The notes under the pieces are model-generated. The model was not told the origin of the DNA. It saw only the letters and a program-made list of their open reading frames with translations, and searched no databases. Of a stretch of DNA of 64,000 bases, positions 3,703 through 27,520 are shown in pieces. Position 1 is the stretch's first letter. Each line of letters opens with the position of its first letter. Source of the stretch: an uncultured Spirochaetota bacterium (lineage in GTDB: Bacteria; Spirochaetota; UBA4802; UBA5550); the NCBI GenBank assembly GCA_942493035.1, contig OW818666.1:3028702-3092701 (forward strand), given 5' to 3'. A program made the translations under genes and the position numbers.

Positions 3703-4016
3703 ATACCCTTCCCGCTAAGAAACCGGCAGTTATTGACTTTATATGATTATAATTTTCCCGTGTATTTATACAACAATTCTATGTATTAAGTTAATTATTA
3801 ATAGATATTATGACCACAATAATTTCCCGAAGTTAAAAATAAGATATTATTCATAATGGCTTATAAACCGGCGGCATTTTTCTCCACTCCTTACAGGTGC
3901 GGGAAAGACATATTTTAACTTCTATTATCATATAGTAATTGTTTTTTTGCTCTTTTAAAAATGTTATTGAAGGAAATCATATGTTTTAATAACAACATAA
4001 TTATTACAGGAAAAAG

Positions 4017-4571
4017 ATGAAACCTTCGTATAACATCCATATCGGCGAATACTACGCGAGCAAGACTCCGGCAATTATTACAACAATTCTCGGCCCATGC
4101 GTGGCAGTGTGCATCTATGATAAGACAAAAATGATCGGCGGGATGAACCACATCCTTATGCCTGGAGATGCCCCTGACAGAGAAAATATAATCGACTCAC
4201 GATATGGCATAAATGCCATGGAACTTCTGATTAACCAGATGATGAAACTCGGCGCCAACAGATATAAACTTACAGCAAAAGTTTTCGGAGGAGCAGCAAT
4301 ACTCTCCTCTATTTCCGGCGAATTCAACATGGGTATAAGAAATGTTGAATCGGTAATACAATTTCTTGAGATAGAAAAAATTCCTATTATCAATTATAAT
4401 TTCGGAGGATTTGATTCCAGAAGAATTTACTATCACTCCGACACCGGTGAGGTTCTGATAAAAAGAATCAAATCAAGAGAAGCACTTACTGAAGACTCAG
4501 TTGTCCGGGAAAGACGGCTTGAGGCTGAAAAAAGAATTAAGAAAACACCGTCAGTTATATTTTTCGACTGA
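4017..4571 (+). CDS. cheD: CheD-like chemoreceptor glutamine deamidase, paralog 1.
   Basis: The ILGPCVAVCIYD and GGMNHILMPGD motifs match the CheD catalytic Cys/His region. RBS-like AGGAAAAAG precedes the ATG. ~70% identical to the ORF at 32014-32568. Confidence 0.8.
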   Translation: MKPSYNIHIGEYYASKTPAIITTILGPCVAVCIYDKTKMIGGMNHILMPGDAPDRENIIDSRYGINAMELLINQMMKLGANRYKLTAKVFGGAAILSSISGEFNMGIRNVESVIQFLEIEKIPIINYNFGGFDSRRIYYHSDTGEVLIKRIKSREALTEDSVVRERRLEAEKRIKKTPSVIFFD

Positions 4572-4575
4572 TTTT

Positions 4576-4621
4576 GCAGAACCTCCCCATCGCCATGTGG
4601 AGAGGGGGCCGGGTGATGAGG
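4576..4621. terminator. GC-rich hairpin between convergent cheD-like gene and kinase gene. Candidate bidirectional terminator and member of the CTCCCC...GGAGAGGG repeat family.
   Basis: CCTCCCCATCGCCATGTGGAGAGGGGGCCGGGTGATGAGG lies between stop codons at 4571 and 4622. Similar modules occur at 8041-8075 and 27521-27560. Confidence 0.4.
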
Positions 4622-6682
4622 TCACACTTCAAACTCCAGAATAATTATCGTTCCCTCTCCCCGTTCAACTTTTACACTTCCTCCAACCTGATCAACAAGC
4701 ATATTTACAAGATCAAGTCCAAATCCCTTTGATTTTTCAGATTCTAATGATTCCGGAATTCCGACTCCGTTATCCCGTACCCGTATAGTAAAAATTTTAT
4801 CTTTTTTATAGGCAGTTACACTTATTACACCTTCATCCCTTCCTATGAATGCATGCTTCATAATATTTGTAAGTAATTCGTTTATAATTATCCCCAGAGG
4901 TGTAAGAATCTGAATATTTAGTATAAAATCTTCAATGTCTGTTTCAATCTGTATTCCGATTCTGCCGGGAAAGCTCCCCACGACCTCTGCGGTAAGCGGC
5001 TGAAGATAATCTTTAACAGATAACTCTCTATAATTATCTGTACAGTAGAGTCTGTCATAAAGCATTATCATGCTCTGCACGCGCCGTTCAGCATCGCGGA
5101 GTGATTCCTCAGCTGATTGATTCTCTTCAGCGGATATCTGCAGTGTAAGAAGACCCTTGATAGTGTTCATGTTGTTCTTAATACGGTGGTGTACTTCACT
5201 AAGAAGAAGTTCCTTCTCAGCAAGAAGAGTGCGGACTCTCTCTTCAGAAAGTCTGCTCTCGGTAATATCGCGGACAAAAATTGAAACACCGACTATTTCA
5301 TTATTGTTATAGATAGGATTATATAAAATCTCGTGGAACAAGCGGTTGATGTCGTTAGTCTCCCGGACAACAGTATATGATTCACCCGACATAGCGCGAT
5401 CAATATTCAGTTTGGCAATTTCCCTCTCATCCTCCGGAATTATGAAGTCCAGTGCGTTCTGCCCCGTGGCAATCTCTTTCCCGTATCTCCGCTTAATGTC
5501 GTCAGAATAAGTTTTATTAAAATAAAGATACCTGTAATTTTTATCAACAGACAGGATAATCAGACCTGCCGGGCTCTCCAGACTCGACTTCAATAGCATC
5601 TGCGCCTTTTCCAGTTCCTGATTGGTAGATGTAAGCTCCTCATTGGTTGCAACCTGCTCCTCGTATGTAGCATCTAGCTCTTCTACGGCAGCGATAAGAT
5701 CTTCATTTTTATTTCGTAAACGTGCTTCACTCTCACGCAGTGCCGCCTCACTTAATCTTAAATCATCCAGCGCATGTCTTAGAGTTAATGTTCTGATCAG
5801 TATCTTTTTTTTAAGCTGTTTATTCCACAAAAATACAAATCCCGAAACAGCAAATAACAGTATCATAAATGCAGCCGCAAATTTGAATTCGCGGCTCTCC
5901 ATAAAACTGACAGTATGAAGACTGATCCATTTGCGGTAAATTTTGTCCCGCTCAGACTGTGATATAGCCGCAAGCCCCTTAGTCAGAATGCTGTTCAGCT
6001 GCGGCCAGTCCTTTCGCGACCCGATAGCAAGCCGTATGGGGTAACCGGCATCACCGGATATCTGAATATTAGAAATACCCTCCTTCTCGGTTAGATAGGA
6101 TGCAGTTGCAAGATCTATAACAGCCGCATCGGAGATTCGATATGATACATTAAGAATTGCGTTAAGATCCGAAGATACAATGTCGCTTTTAATCTGAGGA
6201 TGATTCTTTTTTATAAATTCTGTTATAGCATATCCCTGAACAAGTGAAACTCTTTTTCCGGCAAGTTCGCTGAGAGATAAATTGCTCATTGAATCTTTCC
6301 GGACAAGAATAACATTTTTAATTTCCACTATAGGCTCAGTGAATAACAGATATTCACTCCGCTCGGGAGTTTTTGTCGCAGCGTTAACAATTGAAACTTT
6401 TCTATCTTTTGCAAGTGAAAGGATCTCATCAAAAGATGATGCCTTAACTATATTAAAACTGATTCCGAGTTTCTTCTCTATAAGTTTTATATAATCATGA
6501 GCCAGACCTCTGGTTGTTCCAGCTTTGTCATCGTAAAATTCAAAAGGTGCATAAAACGGATCCGGAGCAAAATAGATCTCATTCTTATGGTTATCGAGCC
6601 ACTCCTCCTCGGCAGGATCGAGAACTACCTGTTTTGCGTTATATGATTTATCACATGACATCAGCAGAAACGCCGATAACAT
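4622..6682 (-). CDS. Sensor histidine kinase: signal peptide, periplasmic SBP_bac_3-like solute-binding domain, TM helix, NEEL-heptad coiled coil, PAS, HisKA_2 and HATPase.
   Basis: N-terminal solute-binding-like region (KTPERSEYLLFTEP). TM segment FAAAFMILLFAVSGFVFLW. Coiled-coil heptads NEDLIAAVEELDATYEEQVATNEELTSTNQELE. H-box EVHHRIKNNMNTIKGLL. N-box NELLTNIMKHAF. G-box DNGVGIP...GFGLDLV. Confidence 0.85.
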   Translation of the reverse strand: MLSAFLLMSCDKSYNAKQVVLDPAEEEWLDNHKNEIYFAPDPFYAPFEFYDDKAGTTRGLAHDYIKLIEKKLGISFNIVKASSFDEILSLAKDRKVSIVNAATKTPERSEYLLFTEPIVEIKNVILVRKDSMSNLSLSELAGKRVSLVQGYAITEFIKKNHPQIKSDIVSSDLNAILNVSYRISDAAVIDLATASYLTEKEGISNIQISGDAGYPIRLAIGSRKDWPQLNSILTKGLAAISQSERDKIYRKWISLHTVSFMESREFKFAAAFMILLFAVSGFVFLWNKQLKKKILIRTLTLRHALDDLRLSEAALRESEARLRNKNEDLIAAVEELDATYEEQVATNEELTSTNQELEKAQMLLKSSLESPAGLIILSVDKNYRYLYFNKTYSDDIKRRYGKEIATGQNALDFIIPEDEREIAKLNIDRAMSGESYTVVRETNDINRLFHEILYNPIYNNNEIVGVSIFVRDITESRLSEERVRTLLAEKELLLSEVHHRIKNNMNTIKGLLTLQISAEENQSAEESLRDAERRVQSMIMLYDRLYCTDNYRELSVKDYLQPLTAEVVGSFPGRIGIQIETDIEDFILNIQILTPLGIIINELLTNIMKHAFIGRDEGVISVTAYKKDKIFTIRVRDNGVGIPESLESEKSKGFGLDLVNMLVDQVGGSVKVERGEGTIIILEFEV

Positions 6683-6782
6683 AAGTATTAAAAAATTATT
6701 TTTAAATTTTATAACAGCCCCCCTCCACTCTCTTGTGTGTATAAAGATTCATCGGATTTTAAAATTACAGAATGTGTTTCCT

Positions 6783-6853
6783 GTAGAGACGCAGCATTCT
6801 GCGTCTCTACTAAATCCTATAATCCCTTAATCTGCTTAATCCTAATTCAGACA
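6783..6853. repeat. Partial copy of the TGTCTGAAT foldback element family. A 28-bp perfect palindrome is followed by the conserved right arm AAATCCTATAATCCCTTAATCTGCTTAATCCTAATTCAGACA.
   Basis: GTAGAGACGCAGCATTCTGCGTCTCTAC palindrome at 6783-6810. The right-arm TIR supplies the V-stop (GTCTGA) of the kinase gene ending at 6847. Confidence 0.6.
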
Positions 6854-8007
6854 TCCTCAAATTCCAGCAAAAACTTTGTCCCTTCGCCCCGCTCAATCTT
6901 TATACTTCCGTTCAGCTGCTCCGTAAGCATACCTACAAGCTGCATTCCAAAACCGGTTGAGTTTTCAAATGTAATCCCTTCAGGGATCCCTGCACCATTA
7001 TCTGCAATTGTTATTAAAATTATATTTCCCGCTTTTGATGCGGTTACGCTTATAACACCATCGCTGCGGCCTGTAAAGGCATATTTCATTGCGTTGGTTA
7101 TAATTTCATTCACAAGTATTCCCAGTATTGAAAGAATCTTGGCCTCAAGAACAATGTCATCAATTCCGGTTTTGATTTTAACAGATTTTTTTAGAGGAAA
7201 AATTCCTACAATTTCATAAATAAGATCGGGGAAGTATTCTTTAAGAGATACAGACGCTGTATGTTCCGAACGGTACAATTTGTCATACAGTACGCTCATG
7301 CTCTGCACCCTCCCCGCAGCATCAAAGAGCACATTTTTTGCGGCTTCATCAGTCCGGGCGTTTGCCTGCATGTTCAGCAGAGCTCCGATGTTATACATAT
7401 TATTTTTAACACGATGATGGACCTCTTTCAGAATAAGCTCTTTCTCATTCAGCAGATTATACACAGTCTCCTCTGCGAGTTTCCGATCGGTTATATCTAC
7501 AGCATTTATGTAGCATTTTTTTTCATTTGAGGAGATCACACCTTCAATATGAATAAAAGATTTAATATCATTTTCAATTTTCAGTCTTACTTCGCAGATC
7601 TGTCTTAAACCGGTTTTAAAGATCTTGTCCATAAAGTCATCGAATTCAGGGAGAGTCTCCGGCGATACAAATGATCTGAACTTGCTGTTTACCAGATCAG
7701 AACGATCACTTCCAAGCATTCCTGCACCGCTACGGTTCATCTCGTAAATTGTACTGTCGGGATTAAGAGTGAAATATCCCATTGCCGCATATTCATAAAA
7801 CGCGTTGAACTTCTCTGCAGCAGCAGCTGCGATATCCCTTTCGGAGAGTACTTCCTCATTTATAAGTTCAAGCTCAATATTTTTCAACTCTAGCCCGGTT
7901 ATAATTTTTTCAATCTCTGGAGCGGTTAAAGAGGATATATTAACATGATCTTTCTTTTTATAAAGCTCTTCTGCTTTTTTAATGAATAATTTATCATCTG
8001 ATTTCAT
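6847..8007 (-). CDS. Cytoplasmic PAS - HisKA_2 - HATPase sensor histidine kinase.
   Basis: 386 aa. H-box EVHHRVKNNMYNI. N-box NEIITNAMKYAF. G-box DNGAGIP...GFGMQLV. No TM segment. Confidence 0.85.
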   Translation of the reverse strand: MKSDDKLFIKKAEELYKKKDHVNISSLTAPEIEKIITGLELKNIELELINEEVLSERDIAAAAAEKFNAFYEYAAMGYFTLNPDSTIYEMNRSGAGMLGSDRSDLVNSKFRSFVSPETLPEFDDFMDKIFKTGLRQICEVRLKIENDIKSFIHIEGVISSNEKKCYINAVDITDRKLAEETVYNLLNEKELILKEVHHRVKNNMYNIGALLNMQANARTDEAAKNVLFDAAGRVQSMSVLYDKLYRSEHTASVSLKEYFPDLIYEIVGIFPLKKSVKIKTGIDDIVLEAKILSILGILVNEIITNAMKYAFTGRSDGVISVTASKAGNIILITIADNGAGIPEGITFENSTGFGMQLVGMLTEQLNGSIKIERGEGTKFLLEFEDV

Positions 8008-8086
8008 ATCATTACCTTTTTGAATTTACTATTTGTCTTCCTTCTCCTCCCCATGTAGAGAAGGAATGAGGTCACGCATCCCATTT

Positions 8087-8215
8087 TGTCTGAATTAGGA
8101 TTTATAGGATTAGCGGATTAAAGGATTTCCATGAAACTGTAGGCTCGTAGCGCGCTACGAGCCTACAGTTTCTAAATCCTATAATCCTCTAATCTGCTTA
8201 ATCCTAATTCAGACA
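8087..8215. repeat. Complete foldback (MITE-like) element. Terminal inverted repeats TGTCTGAATTAGGATT / AATCCTAATTCAGACA with internal TAATCC-type subrepeats and a central 40-bp perfect palindrome (8133-8172).
   Basis: Left arm TGTCTGAATTAGGATTTATAGGATTAGCGGATTAAAGGATTT and right arm are near-reverse-complements. Centre GAAACTGTAGGCTCGTAGCGCGCTACGAGCCTACAGTTTC is perfectly palindromic. The right TIR supplies GTCTGA (Val-stop) of the 8209-11223 kinase. Confidence 0.7.
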
Positions 8216-11200
8216 GCTTCAAACTCCAGCACAAACCTCGTCCCTTCGCCACGTTCAATCCTTATACTCCCGCCGATCTGCCCGGTAAGCATACCTGCAA
8301 GCTGCATTCCGAAACCTGTTGAGTTTTCAAAAGTTACCGACGCGGGAAGACCCGCTCCGTTGTCTCCGTAAATCACTGTAACCACATTCTCTTTTCTTTT
8401 TGCAGATATGCTTATAATTCCACTCTCTTTATCATTGAAGGCATACTTTATAGAATTGGTTATAAACTCGTTTATAATAATCCCGACAGGAGAGAGCATC
8501 TTTGAATTTAATATAAAATCCTCAATGTCAACTTCCGCTTTTATAAAAGCGCGATAAGAAAATAACCCAAGCACTTCACTGATCAAGGGTTCAAGAAAAT
8601 CCTTAATACTCATTTCATTATAATTATCCGACCGGTAGAGTTTATCATAAAGTATCATCATCTTTTTTATACGAAGAGCTGAATCATGAAGTATAGCCTT
8701 ACACTCCTCATCCTTCATTGCATCGGACTGCAGTGTGAGCAGACCGTAGATTGTATTCATATTGTTTTTTACCCGGTGATGGGTCTCTTTGAGAAGTATC
8801 TCTTTTTCACGAAAAAGTAATTTTATTTCATCTTCCACCATTTTCCGTTCAGTAATATCTTCTGCAACACCTTCAAGCCAGTCCTTATCCTTAATATGTT
8901 TTGCCGAGAGACGTATCCATATTATAGATCCATCCTTTCTCCAGAAACGGGCTTCAAAATTAAAAATCTCCCTGTTTTGCTTAAGAAGCGAAATCATTCT
9001 TTTTCTCTCTTCTTTATCAACATACTGTTCAGCTATATTATAATTTACCGCAAGAATAGATTCTCTATTTTCATATCCGGCAAAGCGTGCGAGTGTATCG
9101 TTTGCGTCAAGCATCAGCCCCGATTCAACCTCGGATCTGAACAGCCCTATCTGTGAATTGAGGAAAAGATTTCTATATGTTTCCTCCGCAATTTTGAGAG
9201 CCTCTTCCGCACACTTCAGTTCCGTGATTTCACGAAAGCTTGCAATCCCCCCGACAAGCTGTCCGGAACTGTTGAAGAGAGGAGCTGCATTAACCGACAG
9301 CCATTTTCTTTCACCATCCTTTGCTGCAATCTGATGCTGAAGATCTACTACAATGCGCTGTTCTTTCAAAGCAACAGCAAGTGGAAGCTTGTCTTCAGGA
9401 TATGGATTCCCATATCCATCAATCTGCATCCACTCACGGCTCTGATAATATTTCCCAAGAATATCTTTGCCAATACCAAGAATTGTCTGGGCCGCCTGGT
9501 TTGAGTAAGTGATTTGACCGTTAAGATCAACAGTTACCATGCCATCGACCATTGTCTGCAGCATCGTCTCCAGTTTATTTTCAGATTTCAGAAGCGCATC
9601 CTCGGCCTGCTTCCGCTCGGTTATATCAAGAACAACACCAATCAGACCTGTAATATTTCCGGAGACATCTTTAATACTCCCTTTGTGAAAGACAACATCA
9701 CGGAGCTCCCCCCTGGCATTCTTCACCTGTGATTCGTATACCTGAATTCCCGCCTTTTCAAAAAGCACCGAATCCTGTTTATGATAAATTTCCGCAAGTT
9801 CAAGGGGATTAACATCAAAAACATTTTTACCTATGAGATCCTCTTTTTTCGCCCCGAAAAAAGCTTCAAATGCCTGATTAAATCCGGTATAACGCCCCTG
9901 AAGATCTTTATAAAAAACCGGCACCGGTAAAGACTGAAGTAAAAGACTTAGTGACAGTTCACTCCCCTTCAACGCATCTTCAGTCATCTTCCTTTCAGAA
10001 ATATCAATACCGACTCCAGTGAAATACGTTTTGCCGTCGATAGTAAGTTTTACACCATTAGAGCGAATAAGAAGTTTACCTCCACCCTTTATAAGCAGAT
10101 TTGCCTCTACCTCGCCATAACCGGTCCTGAATACTTCATCTACTGCTGCAGCCACTCTTACTGCATCTTCACCTTCAAACCAGTCCGACATATTCATATG
10201 AGATAACTCTTCCGCTGAATAGCCGGTCATAGTTTCATGTTTCTTATTCCATCGTATAAGGTTGCCATTTTCATCATAGACATAGAGATAACCGGGAATA
10301 CTTTCAAGAAGAGCTTCTATAAAAATCTTTTCACTAAGAATAGCTCTATCCTTTGCCAGAAGATCCTCATTAACTGCTATAAGCTCCTCATTCGCGGCCT
10401 CCATCTCCTCCATGGCGGCGTTCAGCTCTTCATTAGCTGCTTCAAACTCTTCAGTTTTATTTTTAATTTCCACCTCCGCGCGTTTACGTTCGGTGATGTC
10501 GCGAACTATAGCAAGAACCTCCTCATCATCAAGCTTTGCTATTCGAAGATCATATATATGCGGCTCATTATCAATATCCAGTGTATATATATAATTCTGG
10601 ATGTCCCCTGTCTCAATACACTTCCGGAAAAGAGCAAGAAGCTTCTGAACTTCATCGGCCGAAAACAGTACATTTATATTATTACCGATAATTACTTCAG
10701 AAGGTAATGCAAGAGAATCAGAATCTGAACTTCCGGAAAAATCTTTGAAAAATCCCTTACTATCCACAACAAACATCATGTCAGGAATCGTCCGTAGAAT
10801 TGTCTGACTTCGCAGAGATTCCTTTCTCGCCTCTTCGTGAGAGTTGTACAGATCAAACGCCATCTCCATAGACGATTGAAGAACAAAATCGCCGGAGCTC
10901 TTTACCACATAGCCGTAGCGGGTTATATTACGCACCTTCTCCACCATCTCGCGTTCAGAGTGTGATGTATGAAAGACTATAGGTATATTTTTTTCTGCAA
11001 GTATCTGACGGGCAGCCTCTGTGCCGTCAATGCCTTCTCCAAGGTTTATATCCATTAGAATAAGATCAATTTTTTCAACGCCTTCTGTAATCTCAACAGC
11101 CTTTTCACCTGAAGTCGCAGTAATAACTTTATAGCCGAATCTCTGCAGAGCTTTAGAAACTACAATCCCGATTATTGCTTCATCTTCAACGAGAAGTATC

Positions 11201-11223
11201 GTCTTTTGATTTTCATAATTCAT
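8209..11223 (-). CDS. Hybrid sensor kinase: N-terminal receiver, multiple PAS domains, NEEL coiled coil, HisKA_2 and HATPase.
   Basis: 1004 aa. N-terminus MNYENQKTILLVEDEAII...LILMDINLGEGIDGTEAA. Heptads EEFEAANEELNAAMEEMEAANEELIAVNEDL. Several DITERK PAS linkers. H-box ETHHRVKNNMNTIYGLL. G-box DNGAGLP...GFGMQLAG. Confidence 0.85.
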   Translation of the reverse strand: MNYENQKTILLVEDEAIIGIVVSKALQRFGYKVITATSGEKAVEITEGVEKIDLILMDINLGEGIDGTEAARQILAEKNIPIVFHTSHSEREMVEKVRNITRYGYVVKSSGDFVLQSSMEMAFDLYNSHEEARKESLRSQTILRTIPDMMFVVDSKGFFKDFSGSSDSDSLALPSEVIIGNNINVLFSADEVQKLLALFRKCIETGDIQNYIYTLDIDNEPHIYDLRIAKLDDEEVLAIVRDITERKRAEVEIKNKTEEFEAANEELNAAMEEMEAANEELIAVNEDLLAKDRAILSEKIFIEALLESIPGYLYVYDENGNLIRWNKKHETMTGYSAEELSHMNMSDWFEGEDAVRVAAAVDEVFRTGYGEVEANLLIKGGGKLLIRSNGVKLTIDGKTYFTGVGIDISERKMTEDALKGSELSLSLLLQSLPVPVFYKDLQGRYTGFNQAFEAFFGAKKEDLIGKNVFDVNPLELAEIYHKQDSVLFEKAGIQVYESQVKNARGELRDVVFHKGSIKDVSGNITGLIGVVLDITERKQAEDALLKSENKLETMLQTMVDGMVTVDLNGQITYSNQAAQTILGIGKDILGKYYQSREWMQIDGYGNPYPEDKLPLAVALKEQRIVVDLQHQIAAKDGERKWLSVNAAPLFNSSGQLVGGIASFREITELKCAEEALKIAEETYRNLFLNSQIGLFRSEVESGLMLDANDTLARFAGYENRESILAVNYNIAEQYVDKEERKRMISLLKQNREIFNFEARFWRKDGSIIWIRLSAKHIKDKDWLEGVAEDITERKMVEDEIKLLFREKEILLKETHHRVKNNMNTIYGLLTLQSDAMKDEECKAILHDSALRIKKMMILYDKLYRSDNYNEMSIKDFLEPLISEVLGLFSYRAFIKAEVDIEDFILNSKMLSPVGIIINEFITNSIKYAFNDKESGIISISAKRKENVVTVIYGDNGAGLPASVTFENSTGFGMQLAGMLTGQIGGSIRIERGEGTRFVLEFEAV

Positions 11224-11262
11224 AGTCTAACTTCCCTGTGCAGCTGATCTTTTAATCCTGAT

Positions 11263-12675
11263 TCAGGCATCATTAAACTCCAGTACAAACCGTGTTCCAT
11301 CGATACGGTCAATTCTTATTCTCCCGCTTAACTGCTGGACAAGCATACTTATTAATTCCAGTCCGAATCCTTTTGAGTTTTCAAAATTTACTGAATCAGG
11401 AATACCAACCCCATTGTCCTGTATCACAATATGAGTACGGTTATCATTTCTTGATGCTTCAACAGTTATAATACCGCTGTCTCTACCGACAAACGCGTAC
11501 TTCATAATATTTGTCAGAAGTTCATTTAAAATAATACCAAGAGGGAAAAGTGTCCCTGCGCTCAGTATAAAATCATCAATATTTTTTTCAATTTTCACAA
11601 TCTGTTTGTTCGGGAAATTACTTATAATTTCATCTACCAGCGATGGAAGGTATTCTTTTACAGAGAGTTCTCTGTAATCAGCAGAACGGTAAAGCTTGTC
11701 GTAGAGCACCATCATGCTATCGACACGGTTTTCCGCATCATGAAGAGCTGCAACAGCTGAAGGATCCTTAAGAGTTTCGGACTGAAGAAAAAGAAGACTT
11801 TTAATTGTATTCATATTATTTTTTATACGATGATGGACTTCTTTCAATATCAGTTCTTTTTCAGCAAGTAGTGATTTTATTTTTTCTTCGGCAATTTTAC
11901 GTTCAGTTATGTCCAGGAATGTAACAACTGCACCAACGACTTGACCTTCACGCAATTGCGGATAAGACCAGTATTCAGCAGGAAAAGATGTTCCGTCGGA
12001 ACGCCAGAGCACTTCGTCATCAACATGTGTACCTGAACCCTGTATAAACGCCTGGAATATACGGCAATCTTCAACCGGAAAAAATTTTCCGTCTGAATGC
12101 TTTCCATGTATCTGCCAATGCATATTTTTTCCAAGCAGTTCATCGGGATGTTTATACCGGAGCATTGTCACACATGAATTATTGCAGAATGTGCAGTTAC
12201 CATCCATGTCAATTCCGTATATAGCTTCAGCTGTGGAATTAAGCACGAGATGAATTTTTTCTTCATTCTTTCGCAACGACTCCTCTGCCTCTCTCCGCTT
12301 ATCCTCATTTTCTATCTCTTTATCAACTCTCCGTATAATCTCAGGAAGCAGATCCATAAAATTTTTATCTTTTACAATATAATCCCTGGCTCCGAGCTTC
12401 ATCATATCAACTGCTATCCTCTCATCACCCTGACCCGTAGAGATAATAAATGACGGCAGACTATGCCCGGCCTGCTTCAGTTCTGTAATAAATTCTTTCG
12501 CGTTCATATCCGGAAGTGTGTAATCGAGAAGCATTAAATGCGCGTTATTTACCGAAAGCCAGTCAACAGCCCCACTCCCTGAATTTACAATTGCAGATTC
12601 ATAACCGCACTCTTCTACTTTATCTCTGATCAATTCAGAGAGACCTTCATCATCATCAACAATAAGAATCATCAT
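11263..12675 (-). CDS. Receiver - PAS - HisKA_2 - HATPase hybrid kinase.
   Basis: 470 aa. Receiver MMILIVDDDEGLSELIRDKVEECGY is near-identical to the receiver of the next gene. The PAS domain carries a Cys cluster GNCTFCNNSC. H-box EVHHRIKNNMNTIKSLL. Confidence 0.85.
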   Translation of the reverse strand: MMILIVDDDEGLSELIRDKVEECGYESAIVNSGSGAVDWLSVNNAHLMLLDYTLPDMNAKEFITELKQAGHSLPSFIISTGQGDERIAVDMMKLGARDYIVKDKNFMDLLPEIIRRVDKEIENEDKRREAEESLRKNEEKIHLVLNSTAEAIYGIDMDGNCTFCNNSCVTMLRYKHPDELLGKNMHWQIHGKHSDGKFFPVEDCRIFQAFIQGSGTHVDDEVLWRSDGTSFPAEYWSYPQLREGQVVGAVVTFLDITERKIAEEKIKSLLAEKELILKEVHHRIKNNMNTIKSLLFLQSETLKDPSAVAALHDAENRVDSMMVLYDKLYRSADYRELSVKEYLPSLVDEIISNFPNKQIVKIEKNIDDFILSAGTLFPLGIILNELLTNIMKYAFVGRDSGIITVEASRNDNRTHIVIQDNGVGIPDSVNFENSKGFGLELISMLVQQLSGRIRIDRIDGTRFVLEFNDA

Positions 12676-12796
12676 CAGTATCTCTCCACTGCATTAAAAC
12701 TATAATCATCTGACTTTCTCAAAAAAAATATCCGTCAAAGCGGTTATGACCGGATTATTATAAATCGTTTTTAATATATTCATCAAAAATCCCGTT

Positions 12797-14074
12797 TCAA
12801 AAATTTATTACAATCATATCTCTTCCGGAATTTTTTGCTTTATAGAGTCTTTTATCTGCGGTCTCTATTAATGAGGCCACAGAAACATCTTCAAGTTCCG
12901 AACTTTCTGAAATACCGCAACTGAATGTAAAACTGATCTCTTTATCCTTATAAATAAACTTTTTATTTCTTACAATATCCAGAATACGCTCAATTTTCAA
13001 ACGCGTCTGATCTTTCCCTGAATTCATTGAAACAATTATAAACTCCTCTCCGCCATAACGGCCCGAAAGATCGTATGGCCGGAGACTGCCGCTGATAATG
13101 TCTGCGAATTCTTTAAGGACAAAATCACCGGCCTGATGACCATGTTTATCATTTACTTTTTTAAAATAATCAATATCTATGATTGAAACCGTAAAATTTT
13201 TCCTCTCCCGCAAAAATTCTGCCACAATCACTTCAAGTCTGTCAAAAATATACCTTCTGTTATATATATTGGTAAGTGGGTCGCGGATAGACATATCCTG
13301 TATCTTTTCATACATCTCTTTTTTTTCCGTGATGTCCATATAGATTCCGAACATTCGAAGAGGTTTATTATCCTTCTGCCATTCAATGACTTTCCCTTTA
13401 TTCAAAACCCATACCCAACGTCCATCTTTATGCTTCATACGGCTTTCAAATTCAAAGTAATCCAGTTCCCCGGCAAAGTGCAGTTTCAGTAATTCATAAG
13501 CGCTCTTTAAATCATCAGGGTGAACATTCTTAAGCCAGGTCTGATTCCGCACAGGCATTAATTCTTCAAGTGTGTATCCTATAATCTCCGCCGAACGTTC
13601 ATTCAAAATCACTTCACCGGTTTGAACATTCCATTCCCATGTGCCGAGCCTGGTACTCTGAATTACATTCTCAAGCCGTTCTTTATGTTCCTTTGCTTTC
13701 TTTTCATTTTCAATTTCCCTGACAACTCTTCTTATAACTTCAGGGAGCAGGTCCAGAAAGTTTTTATCTTTTATAATGTAATCCCTCGCTCCGAGTTTCA
13801 TCATATCAACTGCTATCCGCTCATCACCCTGACCTGTGGAAATAATAAATGATGGTATATATAATCCATTCCCCCGCAGTTCTGTTATAAATTCTTTTGC
13901 GTTCATATCGGGAAGAGTATAGTCAAGAAGCATAAAATATGGAGTATACATTAAAAGCCAGTTCATAGCCTCTGCCGCAGAGTTTACAATTGCAGTTTTA
14001 TATCCGCACTCCTCTACCTTCTCTTTAATCAGGTCAGCAAGACCCGTATCATCTTCAACGATAAGAATTATCAT
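12797..14074 (-). CDS. Response regulator with PAS and GGDEF diguanylate cyclase output (PleD/WspR-like).
   Basis: Receiver MIILIVEDDTGLADLIKEKVEECGY. GGEEF active-site motif, GHQAGDFVLKE and RYGGEEFIIV. Stop overlaps the upstream gene start (14071-14074). Confidence 0.85.
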   Translation of the reverse strand: MIILIVEDDTGLADLIKEKVEECGYKTAIVNSAAEAMNWLLMYTPYFMLLDYTLPDMNAKEFITELRGNGLYIPSFIISTGQGDERIAVDMMKLGARDYIIKDKNFLDLLPEVIRRVVREIENEKKAKEHKERLENVIQSTRLGTWEWNVQTGEVILNERSAEIIGYTLEELMPVRNQTWLKNVHPDDLKSAYELLKLHFAGELDYFEFESRMKHKDGRWVWVLNKGKVIEWQKDNKPLRMFGIYMDITEKKEMYEKIQDMSIRDPLTNIYNRRYIFDRLEVIVAEFLRERKNFTVSIIDIDYFKKVNDKHGHQAGDFVLKEFADIISGSLRPYDLSGRYGGEEFIIVSMNSGKDQTRLKIERILDIVRNKKFIYKDKEISFTFSCGISESSELEDVSVASLIETADKRLYKAKNSGRDMIVINF

Positions 14075-14499
14075 ATCTTCACTATCTGAATAAAAAGTCC
14101 CAGCCGTTTTAAAGTCTCTGTAAACTTTATAAAATCAACAGGCTTGGTGATATACATATTACATCCAAGTTTATAACATTCCTCCACTTCACGCGGATCA
14201 TCAGTAGTTGTCAGCATCATAACCGGGATCTCTTTCAATTCAGGGTTCACTTTCAGTCTTCTTAAAACTTCAAGACCATCCATTTTCGGCATATTAAGAT
14301 CAAGAAGTAAAAGATAACTCTTACTTTTGTCTCTTTCACTTTGTCCGGTTCCGGATAAAAAGCCCCAAACCTCTTCACCATTAGTGAAGCGGATAGTTTT
14401 ATTACAAACTCCTGCATCCGCAAGTCCGTCTTTAATCAACTCGGCATGTCCGTCATCATCTTCCGCGATTAGAATTATCATCTCTTTATAATCCGTCAT
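14071..14499 (-). CDS. Single-domain CheY-like response regulator.
   Basis: 142 aa. IILIAEDDDGHAELI, LLLLDLNMPKMDGLEVL and KPVD. Four-bp ATGA overlap with the downstream GGDEF gene. Confidence 0.8.
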   Translation of the reverse strand: MTDYKEMIILIAEDDDGHAELIKDGLADAGVCNKTIRFTNGEEVWGFLSGTGQSERDKSKSYLLLLDLNMPKMDGLEVLRRLKVNPELKEIPVMMLTTTDDPREVEECYKLGCNMYITKPVDFIKFTETLKRLGLFIQIVKI

Positions 14500-14620
14500 A
14501 TTTATGCCTCGATTTTAATATTAGTCTAAATTAAAATTTATTTCCGGAGTTGAGTACTGTGATTCACCTCACCATATGCAGCCGCCAAACTCATGACTTG
14601 TACCTGCCCGCATCTTAACA

Positions 14621-14738
14621 GCCCCCTAAATCCCCCGGAGGGGGACTTCGTAAAATATCGCAAAATTCATTCATTTTTGACATAATTTTTTCAAAACAAT
14701 GTCTTTTAAGTCCCCCTCCGGGGGGTTGGGGGGCTTAG
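14621..14738. repeat. IR-flanked element. CCCCCGGAGGGGGACTT and AAGTCCCCCTCCGGGGG arms flank a 57-bp AT-rich spacer that contains a TTGACA hexamer.
   Basis: Read directly from the sequence. Same architecture as 24837-24939: GC-rich IR arms of the CCCCCGGAGGGGG type flanking a ~56-bp AT-rich spacer. Confidence 0.5.
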
Positions 14739-14761
14739 TAGTGGGTTTTGAAACTCACCCA

Positions 14762-17680
14762 TTACTCCGTAAACTCAAATCTCTGCAGCTCTACAAAAAA
14801 AGTACTCCCCTTACCCGGTTCAGATTCAACGCGAACTCTTCCATTATGCTTTTCAGCAATCCTTTTAACAATACTTAATCCCAGACCATCCCCTGTATCA
14901 GGCTGACTGGAATCCACCTTATAGAATATATCCCATATTTTTTCAAGATGCCTCTGGTCAATACCGGAACCATTATCCCGCATAGAATATACCACCCTCC
15001 TGTATTCAATACCGGCAGTAATTTCAATTATTAATTGTCTGCTCTTGTCACGATACTTTATTGCATTACCGATTATGTTAGAAAAAAGCTGATTAAGAAG
15101 ATTTTCATCACCATAACAAGGCGGGAGGTCTGATATATTTACAATAGCATTCAATTCAGTTAGTTGAAAATTGTAATTACCTATAATAGTATGTAGCAGC
15201 TGACTGGTATCAATTTTTTTAATGCTCATCAATGTCCGTCCGGTCCGTGACAAATGGAGAAGTCCGGCAAGGAGTGTATCCATTTTCGTTACACTGGCGA
15301 AAATAAATTTAAGTGACTTAGGAATATCCTCATCTATGATATGATCTAAATCAGATTTAATCCCGGGAGATATTGATGAATCAGTAATTATAGTTTTAAT
15401 TGAATCCGCATGTTTTTGCAGACGCCTGCTGAATCCCTGAATATTTACAAGGGGTGATCTCAAGTCGTGAGATGCAATATACAGATAATTCTCAAGCTCT
15501 TCGTTCTTGGCAAAAATCTCATTCTGTATCTCTCTGATACCGGTTATATCCGTGGTAATTGTCGCGAAATTATTTTTTTTCGGGGACACTGCCGACACGG
15601 AAAAATATTTATCCAGCGGTTCAAAATATGTTGTATATTCATACGGAACACCTGTCGTGGCAACCCGTGCATACTCATCGATAAACGGTGCAGTCCCGGT
15701 CTGAAATACGTCAGTAGCAAGTTTTCCTGAAGCATCACTTTTTTCAATTCCGGTAATTGCGGTGAACGCATTATTACAATCGGTTATCCGGTAATTAACC
15801 GCTTCACCTTTCTCATCAAACACCAGTTCATGAAGCACTACCATCTCGGTCATTGAGCTGAAGAGAGTATTCAGTTTCTCTTCACTCTCACGAAGGGCTT
15901 CCTCTACATGTTTGCTCTCTGTGATATCTCTTGCAGTCCCTTCAAATCCTATGACAGTGCCGGATTCATTCCGCAATGGAACTGCACTTGAAGTATGCCA
16001 GCACCACGTCCCATCTAAGTGACATACCCGGTATTCCACACCCTCCTGCCGCTCACCGGTTTCAATCACCTTCTTAAGCCACTCAGCACATGCCGGGACA
16101 TCATCGGGATGAACAAAAGGCACAAAGGACTGACCAACAACCTGATTTAACGGGTGACCAAGGAGTGCTGTCCATGCAGGTGAAACAAAAGTAAATATTC
16201 CATCTGAAGTAAGGGTGTAAATAATATCGTGGCTGTTTTCGACAAGCTGGCGAAACTTCTCCTCACTATCATGCAGGGCTTTCTCTGCCTCCTTGCGTGC
16301 AGTAATGTCAGTAGCAGTAGTAAGATTCATTACTACAATTCCGTTTTCATCTTTGATAGGATTTGCCTTTGCGAGAAAATACATAATTCTGTCGGGCAAT
16401 GGAACTGTAACTTCCAGAGACCGGGCTTCCCCGGTTTCGAAAACCTGTCTGTTAGTTTCCTGCCTGTAATCAGCATGCTCTTTGGGATAAACATCCCAGA
16501 AAGTTTTCCCTATAAAATATTCAGGTTTCTGCCCGAAGGTAGAAGCAAAGACATTATTTGCAAATTGATACTCCCCTTTTTCATTTACGCAGAAGACCAC
16601 ATCACTTGTATTTTCAATAAGTGAACGGTACTTCAATTCACTCTCGCGCAAGGCAGTTTCGATCCTTTTTCGATCACTGATGTCGCGTGTCACACTCATT
16701 ATATGAGGCACACCCTGAATATTAATGATCTTGGCAGATATCAATCCGGTTACCGGAGTGCCGTCTTTACGCTGAAAAACAACCTCTAAGTTTTCGCATA
16801 TACCTCTTTCACGCAAAGCAGAAACTACTTTAAGCCGATCTTCCGGATATTTCCAGAGATTAATTTCAAGTGATGATTTACCTGTTACATCTTTTCGGGT
16901 ATAACCGGTCAGAGTAGAGAATCCTTCATTTACCCGGATAAAAAAACCGTCGTCAATCTGTGTGATCAAAACCGAATCGGGATTAGTGTTGAAAAAAAGT
17001 TCCAGGTTTTCCTTGTCCTCGCTGTTTTCAGAATTCAGCCGCTGATTGAGCATTATTATAAGACCAAATGTCACCAGAATCCCTGAGATAAATAGAAATA
17101 CAAATGAAATCGCCTGCATCATAGCTGGAGTAAATAAGCTTTCTACGGGATCAGCAGCAATTGTTATAATGGAACGAAAAGAAAAGAAACAGCCCTGAGT
17201 AAAAAAAAGTACCGTGTTGAAATTTGCAGAAGCTTCAACAGAAACAGTCTTGTAAAAAAATATACTCCATGCGATGAGAAATGAAACGGCTCCAACGATA
17301 CCATAAATAATTACTGTCCTGGATGTTATATAATCATTAAAGTATGTAAAATAAATAAATGATAAAAGATAAACAGAAAAAATTGAAATAATAAGTCCAC
17401 TATTCTCTTTCTTATCAAAAAACCGCATCACCCCAATATATAAAAAAACTGTTCCCGCCAGGATCAGTGCGTTTGCCAGAATGATTGAAATCATCTTTAC
17501 AGCAATAATACCGCGAAGAAAAAGAAAAATATACCCGGAAGACATTGAGGTAAAACCGAGCAGCCACCATCCAACACCCTTGTAGGCTTCATTAACCCTG
17601 TATTGCAGAAAGAGAGCAATAACCTGTAAAAAATTTGTGATGCTAAGTACAATTACCATGGTGAATATATCAATTTTCAT
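14762..17680 (-). CDS. Membrane sensor histidine kinase of the classic HisKA/HATPase_c type. N-terminal polytopic membrane domain followed by multiple PAS domains.
   Basis: 972 aa. Hydrophobic N-terminal ~200 aa with at least 6 predicted helices. PAS linkers (VTRDISDRKR, TARDITESKHVEEAL). H-box ASHDLRSPLVNIQGF. N-box NAIKY. G-boxes DNGSGI...GDGLGLSIV. Confidence 0.85.
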   Translation of the reverse strand: MKIDIFTMVIVLSITNFLQVIALFLQYRVNEAYKGVGWWLLGFTSMSSGYIFLFLRGIIAVKMISIILANALILAGTVFLYIGVMRFFDKKENSGLIISIFSVYLLSFIYFTYFNDYITSRTVIIYGIVGAVSFLIAWSIFFYKTVSVEASANFNTVLFFTQGCFFSFRSIITIAADPVESLFTPAMMQAISFVFLFISGILVTFGLIIMLNQRLNSENSEDKENLELFFNTNPDSVLITQIDDGFFIRVNEGFSTLTGYTRKDVTGKSSLEINLWKYPEDRLKVVSALRERGICENLEVVFQRKDGTPVTGLISAKIINIQGVPHIMSVTRDISDRKRIETALRESELKYRSLIENTSDVVFCVNEKGEYQFANNVFASTFGQKPEYFIGKTFWDVYPKEHADYRQETNRQVFETGEARSLEVTVPLPDRIMYFLAKANPIKDENGIVVMNLTTATDITARKEAEKALHDSEEKFRQLVENSHDIIYTLTSDGIFTFVSPAWTALLGHPLNQVVGQSFVPFVHPDDVPACAEWLKKVIETGERQEGVEYRVCHLDGTWCWHTSSAVPLRNESGTVIGFEGTARDITESKHVEEALRESEEKLNTLFSSMTEMVVLHELVFDEKGEAVNYRITDCNNAFTAITGIEKSDASGKLATDVFQTGTAPFIDEYARVATTGVPYEYTTYFEPLDKYFSVSAVSPKKNNFATITTDITGIREIQNEIFAKNEELENYLYIASHDLRSPLVNIQGFSRRLQKHADSIKTIITDSSISPGIKSDLDHIIDEDIPKSLKFIFASVTKMDTLLAGLLHLSRTGRTLMSIKKIDTSQLLHTIIGNYNFQLTELNAIVNISDLPPCYGDENLLNQLFSNIIGNAIKYRDKSRQLIIEITAGIEYRRVVYSMRDNGSGIDQRHLEKIWDIFYKVDSSQPDTGDGLGLSIVKRIAEKHNGRVRVESEPGKGSTFFVELQRFEFTE

Positions 17681-17689
17681 TTATTTCTC

Positions 17690-17886
17690 CGGTAGACATT
17701 ATCGATCATTCTGCGTCCCCGCCCCCTCTGGCCCCTGGCCATCTCCCCCTTGATGAGAAGGTGGAGAGAATATAAAATCTTTTCCGTACACCCCTTGCCC
17801 CATCTCATCATGGGCGACGAACAGGATGTTCTAGTGTCGGGTGCGGACAGGACGTCCAAAATGCACCCGACGAAAGGTGCCCGTAG
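17690..17886. repeat. Left part of a GC-rich REP-like composite repeat (family shared with 31596-31940, 32581-32760 and 49135-49215). Truncated by the IS insertion.
   Basis: Contains the CATCTCCCCCTTGATGAGAAGGTGGAGAG module and the 36-nt bulged hairpin 17836-17871, and ends ...CGACGAAAGGTGCCCG. The intact units elsewhere continue GCGGGCGGATAGGGGC, which here resumes at 19341. Confidence 0.6.
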
Positions 17887-17995
17887 GGTTTACTATGCTA
17901 GAACAGAGAGGTTAATTTATTTGAAAATCTAAAAAAGAAGGCTACCTTAGAAGTGCAAAAGAAGTAAAACAAAAATCAACAAAGGAGGTAGCCTT

Positions 17996-19069
17996 ATGAG
18001 TAATTTAATGAACTATATAGTTAAAAACAAGGAAATTTTTATTGGTCTTGAAGATTCTAAAAAGACTTGGAAAGTATGTGTACGAAGCGGAAAAGTAACA
18101 ATTCATGAGGCGAGTATGCCAGCTGAATATGAAGTACTTAAAAACTATTTTAACAACAAATTTGCGGATTGCCTCATACATGTAATGTATGAGGCCGGAT
18201 TTAGGGGATTTGGATTACACGATCAGTTGAAATCTGACGGATATGATTGTATTGTTACGCCTCCACATACTGTAACTCAAGAGAAAACACAACGGCAGAA
18301 AAATGACCGTATAGACTGCCGGAGGCTGGCAAAGAATCTAGAAAGTGGCGATTACCATATCTGCCACGTTCCAGATCGAAAGCGCCGTGAAGACCGCCAG
18401 ATATCACGTTTATATGAGCAATTACAACGCGATATAACAAGGGAATGTAACAGGATCCGAAGGGCATTGGAGTTTCACGGCTTAGACAATCAGTTTCAGG
18501 GAGGCAGTTGGTATCGAACACATTATAAAAAAGCATACGAACGTATTCCCGAGATGGATATTTCTTTATCACTGAAATTTGACTTCAGTATTATGTTCAA
18601 TGAATTGTTTCATCTCTGGGAACTTCAGAAACAGGTGCTGAAAGAAATTCATATATTGGCAAAGTCAGAAGCATACAAAGAAGATGTTGACTTGCTAAAA
18701 AGCGCACCTGGTATCGGTATTCTGACAGCAATCAGACTTGTTCTGGAGTGGGGAAGTCTTGACAGGTTTCACAATAAAGCTGAATTCTCAAGTTTTCTGG
18801 GATTGATCCCAAGTGAATATTCATCAGGTGAAACGGAACGGAAAGGTCATATTACAAAACAGGGAAATAAATTAGTACGGTCATGGCTTGTTGAGTGCGC
18901 ATGGCGAGCATTGAAATATGATCCGGTACTACTGCAAATATTTAATAATGTTGTTAACAGTTCGGGAAGCAGAAAGAAAGCGATTGTTGCAGTTGCAAGA
19001 AAACTGGCTATTCGTTTACGGACTCTGTTAATTCATAGAACACCATATACGGTTGGTTTAGTTCATTGA
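17996..19069 (+). CDS. IS110-family transposase: DEDD RuvC-like N-terminal domain plus Transposase_20 C-terminal domain.
   Basis: 357 aa. N-terminus FIGLEDSKKTWKVCV. C-terminal SFLGLIPSEYSSGETERKGHITKQGNKLVRSWLVECAW motif typical of the IS110/IS116/IS902 family. Strong SD AAAGGAGGT 7 nt upstream. Confidence 0.9.
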   Translation: MSNLMNYIVKNKEIFIGLEDSKKTWKVCVRSGKVTIHEASMPAEYEVLKNYFNNKFADCLIHVMYEAGFRGFGLHDQLKSDGYDCIVTPPHTVTQEKTQRQKNDRIDCRRLAKNLESGDYHICHVPDRKRREDRQISRLYEQLQRDITRECNRIRRALEFHGLDNQFQGGSWYRTHYKKAYERIPEMDISLSLKFDFSIMFNELFHLWELQKQVLKEIHILAKSEAYKEDVDLLKSAPGIGILTAIRLVLEWGSLDRFHNKAEFSSFLGLIPSEYSSGETERKGHITKQGNKLVRSWLVECAWRALKYDPVLLQIFNNVVNSSGSRKKAIVAVARKLAIRLRTLLIHRTPYTVGLVH

Positions 19070-19340
19070 TGTTTAAGGATATTATAACAAACAAGGAGCT
19101 GTACATTACAATGCTTTATTTAACAATTTGGTGCATGATGTCCTATCCGCTGTCCCTTCTGAGGACGTCACAGGGTTTATCAGCACCATTAAAAGCTAAA
19201 GAATAAATAAACTGTACACAAGTACGAATAGCGGCATATAAAGCGTTTTAATTGCAGGCTGCCTGGTTATTAAAAAAAAGGAGCACGCTAAAAGAAAAAA
19301 ATTTAAAAAAAGGTAGCACTTAAATTTGACTTTCTCATAG
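19070..19340 (+). ncRNA. Candidate IS1111-type bridge (guide) RNA region in the 3' non-coding end of the IS.
   Basis: 270-bp non-coding tail. Contains GGTGC-ATGATGT-CCTATCCGC (19130-19150), where CCTATCCGC is the exact reverse complement of the target right-flank GCGGATAGG. Also contains AGGACGTC (19165-19172), identical to the target hairpin loop region at 17849-17856. Inference only. Confidence 0.35.
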
Positions 19341-19368
19341 CGGCGGATAGGGGCGGCGGATAAGGGCG

Positions 19369-20964: not shown

Positions 20965-21002
20965 GAAAAACTCCTTGTACCAAAAAATTCTCTCTATCCT
21001 TT

Positions 21003-21106
21003 TGTCTGAATCAGGATTCATAGGATTTAAAGATTAAAGGATGCGGTAAAATAAAACCCTCTCTAAATCCTATAATCCCTTAATATGCTTAATCCTGATT
21101 CAGACA
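21003..21106. repeat. Foldback element copy with both TIRs: TGTCTGAATCAGGATTCATAGGATTT ... AATCCTGATTCAGACA.
   Basis: The arms are reverse-complementary and flank ATGCGGTAAAATAAAACCCTCTC. The right TIR provides the stop codon (GTCTGA) of the 21100-24774 kinase. The left TIR creates a spurious upstream ATG for the 19369 gene. Confidence 0.65.
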
Positions 21107-27364: not shown

Positions 27365-27520
27365 AATGACGTGCTCCCGTATAACTAAACATATAGACCT
27401 CACCCGCTTGCTGCGCACCCTCTCCTCAATGAGAGGTTTTCCGTATTCTAAACTTTCCGCTGCATTAACAAAATAAACCTGTAAAAAATATTTCTTCCAA
27501 ACACAACAGCCCTGTTACAA

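Follow-up and report, generated by a model that had tools for sequence, protein, structure and literature searches.

Foldback repeats at kinase gene ends in an uncultured Spirochaetota bacterium: likely gene-less members of a palindromic cassette family that carries a GxxExxY gene

Foldback elements in the kinase array

The window analysed here is a 64,000-nucleotide stretch from an uncultured Spirochaetota bacterium of the UBA5550 lineage (GenBank assembly GCA_942493035.1, contig OW818666.1, positions 3,028,702 to 3,092,701), and it contains an array of kinase genes, including nine HisKA_2 paralogs, in which short foldback elements with GGATT-rich inverted arms lie against gene ends. An earlier note, made from the letters of this DNA alone, had described these as a repeat family present in complete, single-arm and fragment copies, and we found this family to be real: the 16-mer AATCCTRATTCAGACA has seven matches with at most two mismatches in the window where 0.21 are expected, and none of 100 shuffled sequences gave seven or more. 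The inventory consists of two full foldbacks (8087–8215 and 21003–21106), two single arms and one fragment (Table 1). A profile made from 164 arms of other genomes identified exactly these seven window arms and no others (E-values from 8e-09 to 0.5).

Each arm is about 41–42 nt long and is built from four 8–9-nt AATCCTG-like units followed by ATTCAGACA(A) (also written ATTCAGACAA), and it is the presence of both the units and this end that places the window copies in the arm family. The arms of the first foldback (8087–8128 and 8174–8215) are 42 nt long and 86% complementary in an element of 129 bp, and those of the second (21002–21042 and 21067–21107) are 78% complementary in an element of 104 bp. 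The copy at 6811–6853 had been described as having a right arm only, and it probably has a decayed partner at about 6734–6774. The interiors vary, with different GTAG-headed GC-rich hairpins in the copies at 8087 and 6812 and no hairpin in the element at 21003, and the elements are therefore mosaics of GGATT arms and hairpin cargo. These hairpins form a separate family resembling repetitive extragenic palindromic (REP) sequences, and only the inner hairpins at 8139–8166 and 6783–6810 fit the REP description; both they and a third repeat family insert into or beside the elements. We note that the hairpin GTAGGCTCGTAGCGCGCTACGAGCCTAC is identical at its two window sites and in one related locus (L129, around 2055–2085) though the neighbouring L129 arms have decayed, and it behaves as a separate repeat that is more recently active or more constrained.

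Table 1. Positions of the foldback elements, associated repeats and other features. Numbers without a handle refer to the window; L numbers are our handles for fetched loci.
Position	Strand	Feature	Basis or remark
6838–6853, 8200–8215, 21091–21106	+	AATCCTRATTCAGACA matches	16-mer search
8087–8102, 21003–21018	-	AATCCTRATTCAGACA matches	16-mer search
11254–11269, 59589–59604	+	AATCCTRATTCAGACA matches with one mismatch	16-mer search
6734–6774	-	Possible heavily decayed partner arm (TGTGTGTATAAAGATTCATCGGATTTTAAAATTACAGAAT) of the 6812 arm	Read by eye; not significant by arm profile
6783–6810	.	REP-like hairpin GTAGAGACGCAGCATTCTGCGTCTCTAC, adjoins the 6812 arm	Same hairpin at the orthologous site in L128 and L126
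6812–6853	+	Arm abutting kinase 6847–8007; supplies the kinase's Val and TGA	Profile, codon reading
8087–8128	-	Left arm of the 129-bp foldback, TGTCTGAATTAGGATT... on the + strand, four GGATT units	Profile E 1.7e-07
8137–8168	.	Inner 32-nt perfect palindrome CTGTAGGCTCGTAGCGCGCTACGAGCCTACAG, GTAG-headed REP-like hairpin, cargo at the foldback centre	Identical copy at 59509–59540 and in relative L129
8174–8215	+	Right arm of the 129-bp foldback; supplies Val (8212–8214) and TGA (8209–8211) of kinase 8209–11223 (minus)	Profile, codon reading
11252–11269	+	Truncated arm of about 1.5 units in a 39-nt inter-kinase gap; supplies Ala and TGA of kinase 11263–12675	16-mer match, codon reading
21003–21044	-	Left arm of the 104-bp foldback; spurious in-frame ATG 21019–21021	Profile E 8e-09
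21065–21106	+	Right arm of the 104-bp foldback; supplies Val and TGA of kinase 21100–24774	Profile, codon reading
59492–59557	.	66-nt perfect palindrome whose core is the REP-like hairpin of 8137–8168; followed on the + strand by TTTTAAAAT	Repeat search
59563–59604	+	Degenerate single arm in the parB/phosphoesterase convergent spacer	Profile E 0.095
4577–4621, 8040–8084, 27505–27560; L128 1957–2030, 4226–4330		Second repeat family	
14623–14733, 24837–24939; L121 10940–10978; L232 ~2170–2200; L126 after 10688		Third palindromic family	
17996–19069	+	IS110-family transposase gene within the array of kinases; preceded by a non-coding leader of about 200 nt	DEDD_Tnp_IS110 and Transposase_20
4017–4571, 32014–32568	+	Two 184-aa open reading frames flanking the kinase array, on the strand opposite to the kinases	DNA 76% identical (family D16)
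10348–10470, 22621–22785, 26354–26476, 30159–30323		Repeats with 21-nt/42-nt period inside kinase genes	Families D6, D8 and D18

Four minus-strand open reading frames (ORFs), all PAS/HisKA_2/HATPase_c kinases, end at 6847, 8209, 11263 and 21100. Read in the sense of the gene, the first two finish GAT GTC TGA and GCT GTC TGA before continuing into ATTAGGATT, and the other two finish GAT GCC TGA and ATT GTC TGA before ATCAGGATT, and the last sense codon and the stop of all four therefore sit inside the arm, as had been claimed. The proposal that the terminal inverted repeat is what supplies the Val-stop ending stands only in part, as these codons do lie inside the arm but Val-stop is also found in the element-free paralogs, which end LEFEV-stop or LEFDV-stop (GTG TGA, GTG TAG or GTT TGA), and is therefore ancestral to the kinase family. 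The element-bearing paralogs end LEFEDV, LEFEAV, LEFDIV or LEFNDA before the stop, and the commonest ending amongst 120 kinase homologs is LEF plus two residues. Judged from these sequences, the arm took over an existing kinase ending (giving xxT GTC TGA) and did not invent a Val-stop.

Where an arm replaces the end of an ORF, translation would halt at the first in-frame stop within the arm, and in frame 2 this stop would be GTC TGA, giving the Val-stop ends of the kinases. Frame 2 leaves the shortest possible tail, which may be why we see it in every kinase case. The effect on the kinase operon would then be a change of one or two C-terminal residues and the addition of a long stem to an RNA which is probably polycistronic.

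Arms also touch gene boundaries of other kinds in the window. An ATG within the left arm of the 104-bp foldback (21019–21021) is in frame with kinase 19369–21021 and is spurious, as had been suspected; a second ATG some 55 nt downstream has AAGGAG before it and is the likelier start. The arm in the spacer between the convergent parB and phosphoesterase genes ends at 59604, and the TAG of the phosphoesterase gene (Metallophos_2, 59608–60102, minus strand), which is unrelated to the kinases, lies 3 nt further on, again as first described.

A cross-phylum arm family and its GxxExxY gene

A scan of one genome per species (596 Gb, both strands) with the pattern AATCCN{4,12}AATCCTRATTCAGACA returned at least 120 genome loci, where we estimate that about five matches would be due to chance. 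The titles amongst the 80 matches listed include Dehalococcoidia, Caldilineaceae and Poribacteria (many of these from complete chromosomes of sponge symbionts), Pontibacter isolates and other Bacteroidota, Dolichospermum, Sphaerospermopsis, and metagenome-assembled genomes of a Methylococcaceae and a Pseudomonadota bacterium. An arm of near-identical sequence is thus common to Chloroflexota, Poribacteria, Bacteroidota, Cyanobacteria, Proteobacteria and Spirochaetota. The consensus of 164 arms, ATCCTGnaAATCCttaAATCCTGtAAATCCTGATTCAGACAA, is conserved outside the positions fixed by the pattern, and an A follows the end in 89% of them. The arms are found as full foldbacks, singly and in tandem arrays, and foldback sizes have a mode at 89–96 bp and reach about 236 bp with hairpin cargo and 500–620 bp with a gene, with none larger than 1 kb. 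The family is clearly not confined to kinase 3' ends, given the parB/phosphoesterase copy in the window and the hundreds of unrelated contexts in other phyla.

We did not find the arm family or its link to the gene described in the open-access literature searched or in Rfam. At the gathering score Rfam gave no match in the whole window and none at the arms in 16 loci, and an E-value search of 6600–8400 gave weak chance-level matches only. Searches of open-access full text with 12–16-mers of the arm returned unrelated primers or nothing, and those for GxxExxY, PDDEXK_3 or PF13366 (see below) returned nothing on repeats or mobility, nor was anything relevant found for PDDEXK together with inverted repeats and selfish elements. 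A DNA search of a plasmid collection with a cassette and a window foldback found nothing, although arms may be masked there by the low-complexity filter, and a protein search of the same collection for GxxExxY found only eight copies.

Tandem arrangements can be long, and in one related metagenome contig (L126, 7163–7980) around ten arms with a period of roughly 83–166 bp lie between two kinase genes, with similar arrays in L152, L204, L087, L093 and L110. The arm pattern was also present in nine stretches from eight viral or proviral IMG/VR contigs (L222–L230), which are possible vehicles or host flanks of prophage calls.

Clustering of the ORFs in the 120 arm-selected loci identified one family always beside arms, a protein of about 125 aa which we confirmed as TIGR04256 'GxxExxY protein' (PF13366, PDDEXK_3), having a PD-(D/E)XK fold. 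All nine GxxExxY ORFs in these loci are directly beside or between arms, and in L108 (6740–7247) an arm–gene–arm unit of 508 bp lies exactly between gcvT and an amidohydrolase gene. An independent sample taken from the side of the gene, in which 80 metagenome loci were fetched by protein similarity alone, contained 83 GxxExxY genes, and an arm was found within 250 nt of 74 of these, with arms on both sides of 47; the background density of arms more than 600 nt from a GxxExxY gene was 0.12 per kb. By comparison, the four-helix-bundle (IVS) proteins, an abundant small-gene family used as a negative control, are more than 4 kb from any arm, and were rejected as a second cargo.

The commonest cassette layout is TGTCTGAAT-arm, gene, arm-ATTCAGACA, with outward-facing inverted arms as in the window. 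Overlap of the downstream arm with the final ~26 nt of the GxxExxY ORF is the most frequent arrangement, and arm-encoded tails (of the NPENPKIK or NPANPDSDK type) were seen in 58 of 120 GxxExxY database homologs. Since the arm encodes the tail of the protein, this suggests that arm and gene evolved as one unit. The arm subtype, with GGATT or GAATT units, also tracks the relatedness of the proteins (57 of 63 nearest neighbours agree, permutation p ~5e-4), and a more distant Treponema copy of the gene has a different short inverted repeat (ACACGGATTCG and CGAATCCGTGT).

The GxxExxY proteins have invariant residues of catalytic type (E27, D66, E76 and K78), and the best AlphaFold model (pLDDT 82.8, the other four of five being poor) has Cas4 SSO0001, lambda exonuclease and RecE as its closest, though weak, structural matches (E 8e-4, TM-score 0.52). 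The family is very large, one search having returned about 8000 clusters at E ≤ 1e-20, and a survey of PD-(D/E)XK proteins lists its function as unknown and reports that it was transferred several times between divisions (PMC3424549). With one query, homologs of at least 80% identity were found both in Crocosphaera/Cyanothece (P0254, P0256, P0262 and P0306) and in several Bacteroidota families (P0255, P0316, P0323, P0325 and P0332), a level of sequence identity which suggests a recent transfer between phyla.

Because 74 of the 83 GxxExxY genes have an arm nearby, we consider it likely that the window foldbacks are gene-less derivatives belonging to a widespread palindromic cassette family, the full form of which carries the GxxExxY gene. 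They lack a bracketed TIGR04256 gene, as do most 89–236-bp foldbacks elsewhere, and would relate to the gene cassette much as a REPIN (a doublet of REP sequences) relates to its REP-associated tyrosine transposase (RAYT), or a MITE to its insertion sequence (IS), with the ends kept and the gene lost or never present. The arms would be the substrate of the GxxExxY nuclease, which would cut them or promote their recombination or copying and in this way move or copy both gene-bearing and gene-less forms, and the gene-less foldbacks of the source genome would depend on a copy encoded elsewhere. The elements themselves lie tight against gene boundaries and have no target-site duplication. More tentatively, and with rather less confidence than even, we suggest that GxxExxY proteins are the nucleases of unrecognised selfish elements of about 0.5 kb, which have multi-unit GGATT arms, make no target duplication, are wedged exactly between stop and start codons, leave gene-less foldbacks in at least six phyla, and rewrite the end codons of host genes including kinases and the type I restriction gene hsdS.

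Several points weigh against this interpretation. The association between gene and arm is linkage and not mechanism, and movement driven by the nuclease is something we infer. The structural model is of moderate quality, with one of five models confident and a best TM-score in the PDB of 0.52, and the selection of genome loci by an exact 16-mer inflates the apparent conservation of the arm's end. Neither the window nor some 100 kb of related spirochaete loci contains a GxxExxY gene, so that a partner gene in the source genome has to be assumed. It should also be noted that in all samples the Crocosphaera copy (P0262) occupies the same conserved locus, where just a decayed foldback lies upstream (L215, 1820–1960), and that this copy gave no evidence of recent transposition when we looked for it at multiple loci; at least some copies must therefore be static.

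The same data allow a different relationship between gene and arms, in which a homing-type GxxExxY gene recognises paired arms, or lands at them, and copies itself into foldback centres, while the foldbacks spread by other means. The gene is always between arms and there is no target-site duplication, PD-(D/E)XK homing endonucleases are known (I-Bth0305I is amongst the weak structural matches), and REP-like hairpins likewise land in foldback centres. However, this leaves the arrival of arms at new sites such as the parB spacer unexplained, single arms and tandem arm arrays are common, and the protein tail encoded by the arm points to one evolving unit, and we regard the homing explanation as unlikely.

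Placement at gene boundaries and turnover amongst relatives

The preference for gene ends proposed in the earlier note holds across phyla. For the 85 ORFs (80 aa or longer) that run into an arm, the stops cluster between -8 and +4 nt, with 17 located 3–8 nt before the arm and eight at the arm's own TGA (several of these are doubtful ORFs in GC-rich genomes). Downstream ORFs start 0–2 nt after CAGACA at 16 of 321 arm ends, a spike which is absent at random control positions. The hsdS ORFs enter the arm in another frame and end ...YLNQDLQD-stop, and together with the clustering of stops this indicates that the arm-supplied stop of the kinases is one case of a general habit. We also observed that arm–GxxExxY–arm cassettes are repeatedly found directly after hsdS (L012 1298–1356, L117 3080–3104, L110 and L119).

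It was possible that the elements serve the kinase operon chiefly as a functional RNA or cis-regulator, with selection in place of mobility as the reason for the repetition. Such a role might be that of a terminator or 3' stabiliser, of a site for RNase III, or of a sponge that takes up a GGA-binding protein. The stems predicted in gene sense are very stable (-77.1 kcal/mol with z -14.5, -42 with z -7.3 and -32.5 with z -6.3), the element begins at the stop codon, and A/CAGGAUU motifs are repeated on the sense strand; REP hairpins stabilise upstream mRNA, and in E. coli translation is influenced by REPs that lie near stop codons. However, any perfect palindrome folds well, and the z-scores are therefore no evidence of RNA function. 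The arms have no U-tract, and none of the 12 terminator-like sites called in a scan of 4000–22000 is at an element, which offers nothing to the terminator role first suggested (only the 59.5-kb palindrome, read on the + or parB strand, has UUUUAAAAU after it). The absence of Rfam matches, the occurrence of arms singly, in tandem, before start codons, on either strand relative to their neighbours and around a protein gene, and the decay of arms at orthologous sites between related genomes all add to this, and we judge it quite improbable that the element is chiefly an RNA or regulatory one.

We compared the window with related loci found via homologs of ParB and of the kinase at 6847–8007 (k6847), which assign the window to an uncultured Spirochaetota lineage. 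One account of the repeats would be a co-duplicated 3' flank, in which a single ancient insertion behind a kinase was copied along with the gene and could not move by itself. In its favour, paralogous kinases precede four of the five copies, always in the same reading frame, and a tree weakly groups the three kinases that have full proximal arms. Orthologous kinases in L126, L128 and L129 carry the element as well, so that some copies are old and vertically inherited. Nevertheless, the kinase paralogs share only 51–55% amino acid identity over the last 215 residues, whereas the three kinase-proximal arms of the window are 90–95% identical, with a common odd unit (AATCTGCTT), and arms at orthologous sites of related genomes are only 64–79% like them. 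Such near-identical arms beside old paralogs and divergent orthologous arms argue for recent spread or homogenisation within the genome and not for ancient co-duplication. A higher similarity of the 3' coding ends amongst the element-bearing paralogs, as a carried fragment or gene conversion would produce, was not seen, and the last 30 nt of the kinase genes are conserved in all paralogs, with or without an element.

Empty sites in relatives, which the earlier note had proposed as a check, were found at two places. The parB/phosphoesterase spacer is 129 bp long in the window, where it comprises the palindrome and the arm, and the GGATT arm is missing from its counterpart in each of the seven related loci that were examined. 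In L123, L124/L125 and L231 the spacer is a plain hairpin one of 38–46 bp, and in L121/L122 (93 bp, ParB 95% identical) and L232 (125 bp) a different repeat (AAGTCCCCCTCCGGGGGATTTAGGGG) is flush with the stop; the spacer acts as a hotspot at which different repeats are found. In L129, the locus with the closest k6847 ortholog (85% identical), the gene is element-free and ends GAG GAA TGA followed by TAATATT, where the window reads GAG GA and then TGTCTGAATTAGG. Other orthologs retain parts of an element: that of L128 ends GAT GTC TGA, after which comes a 68-nt CCTC...GGGGGAGA repeat before the foldback resumes with TTGTCTGAACC, and that of L126 ends ACT GTC TGA before a decayed arm. The element at 8209 is kept at the orthologous L129 site, where the arm has decayed and the REP hairpin is identical, and its L128 counterpart has no hairpin. 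From these kinase loci it follows that old, inherited copies exist alongside lineage-specific ones and that each part of an element has its own turnover.

With the same arm in unrelated contexts in several phyla, copies beyond the HisKA_2 ends and empty sites in relatives, the co-duplicated flank is largely refuted and has next to no credibility left, and the original view that the element is not simply a kinase 3' untranslated region duplicated along with its gene is upheld. Within this Spirochaetota lineage, elements have been gained or lost at individual sites, homogenised in the genome, and used as landing places by REP-like hairpins.

The description of the elements as non-autonomous and MITE-like can be kept only in part. 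They are short and non-coding with terminal inverted repeats, beginning TG...CA, and are multi-copy with presence/absence polymorphism between relatives, and the window also contains an IS110-family transposase gene that might suggest a classical MITE, i.e. a deletion derivative of a DDE-transposase IS moved in trans. However, no target-site duplication was found in 48 of 73 foldbacks or cassettes, and neither complete window copy has one; the remaining elements show 1–3 nt which are explained by a preference for T at -1 and A at +1. We found no parent IS with the same ends and a transposase amongst the fetched loci, where GxxExxY alone recurs as a gene enclosed by arms. The stretch within a pair of arms is never longer than ~0.7 kb, and in 200 loci it did not once contain a transposase. 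No link was found between the window IS110 gene and the arms, and IS110 elements are not known to have such inverted repeats. With neither a target-site duplication nor a transposase-bearing parent, strict MITE membership fails, and a classical MITE is a very remote prospect.

We also compared the elements with other known systems. REPINs with their RAYTs and bacterial interspersed mosaic elements (PMC2817692, PMC3184786) are alike in being short intergenic palindromic doublets in many copies, in having a small single gene between inverted repeat copies and no target-site duplication, and in lying at gene 3' ends as mosaics with other repeat modules, and the inner hairpins of the window are GTAG-headed and REP-like. 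In contrast, the arms are not the 20–40-nt GC-rich imperfect palindromes with a GTAG head that define a REP, but A+T-rich arrays of four 8–9-nt direct units with a fixed ATTCAGACA end in place of one GC-rich hairpin; nearly the same arm sequence is found here in several phyla, and the gene between the inverted repeats is PF13366/TIGR04256 with a PD-(D/E)XK fold rather than a Y1/HUH transposase. As both protein and repeat are of different types, REPIN/RAYT membership fails, though it remains the closest working analogy.

Insertion of a Correia element duplicates a TA target, and these elements are regarded as derived from insertion sequences, unlike the present family which makes no duplication, has no transposase parent, and has a small nuclease-fold gene as its partner. 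Bacterial MITEs such as the Correia/NEMIS elements of Neisseria, ERIC/RU and RUP are similar in being foldbacks of ~100–150 bp with terminal inverted repeats that are co-transcribed with their neighbours, and as the 107-bp Correia form has been found fused to ORFs (PMC2229807), a repeat which contributes codons to a gene is already known. The PD-(D/E)XK homing genes share the small free-standing nuclease-fold gene, the lack of target duplication and very similar copies in distant taxa, but they normally reside in introns, inteins or conserved genes and lack long inverted repeats at their ends. Integron attC sites are likewise imperfect palindromes (~60–140 bp) that follow immediately on the stop codon of a short ORF, and they occur in tandem arrays, but here the gene has an arm on either side. 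The arm (ends TGTCTGAAT...ATTCAGACA) lacks the attC core sites RYYYAAC and GTTRRRY, and no integrase was seen, though we made no systematic search for one; a Xer/dif-like site was also rejected from sequence, as the core motifs are absent.

Neighbouring repeats and significance

Two further repeat families also lie at gene ends. The second family, CCTCnCnCCCCGGCCCCCTCTCC-ACAT-GGAGAGGGGGAGG, is flush with kinase stops and always reads TGA then CCTC (e.g. GAA GTG TGA CCTC), and in L128 it lies between duplicated TGTCTGA sequences as if inserted at the end of an arm. The third is palindromic (AAGTCCCCCTCCGGGGGATTTAGGGGG plus its inverse), is also found at gene 3' ends, and fills the parB/phosphoesterase spacer in two relatives. 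The periodic repeats inside the kinase genes are probably coiled-coil heptad linkers common to the paralogs, and the L128 counterpart of the two 184-aa ORFs is annotated as CheD.

Palindromic repeats touching gene ends are familiar, and the observation at the kinases alone would be modest. Less expected are the cross-phylum arm, the identity of the arm with the boundary of the GxxExxY gene, and the placement of elements flush with stops and starts and with no duplication. There is a practical lesson here for annotation, as arm-encoded tails (NPxNP..DSDK and ..LNQDLQD) and arm-internal ATGs lead to false C-termini and false starts. For the very large GxxExxY family, the arms offer a testable hypothesis for function and a handle on its horizontal spread between phyla.

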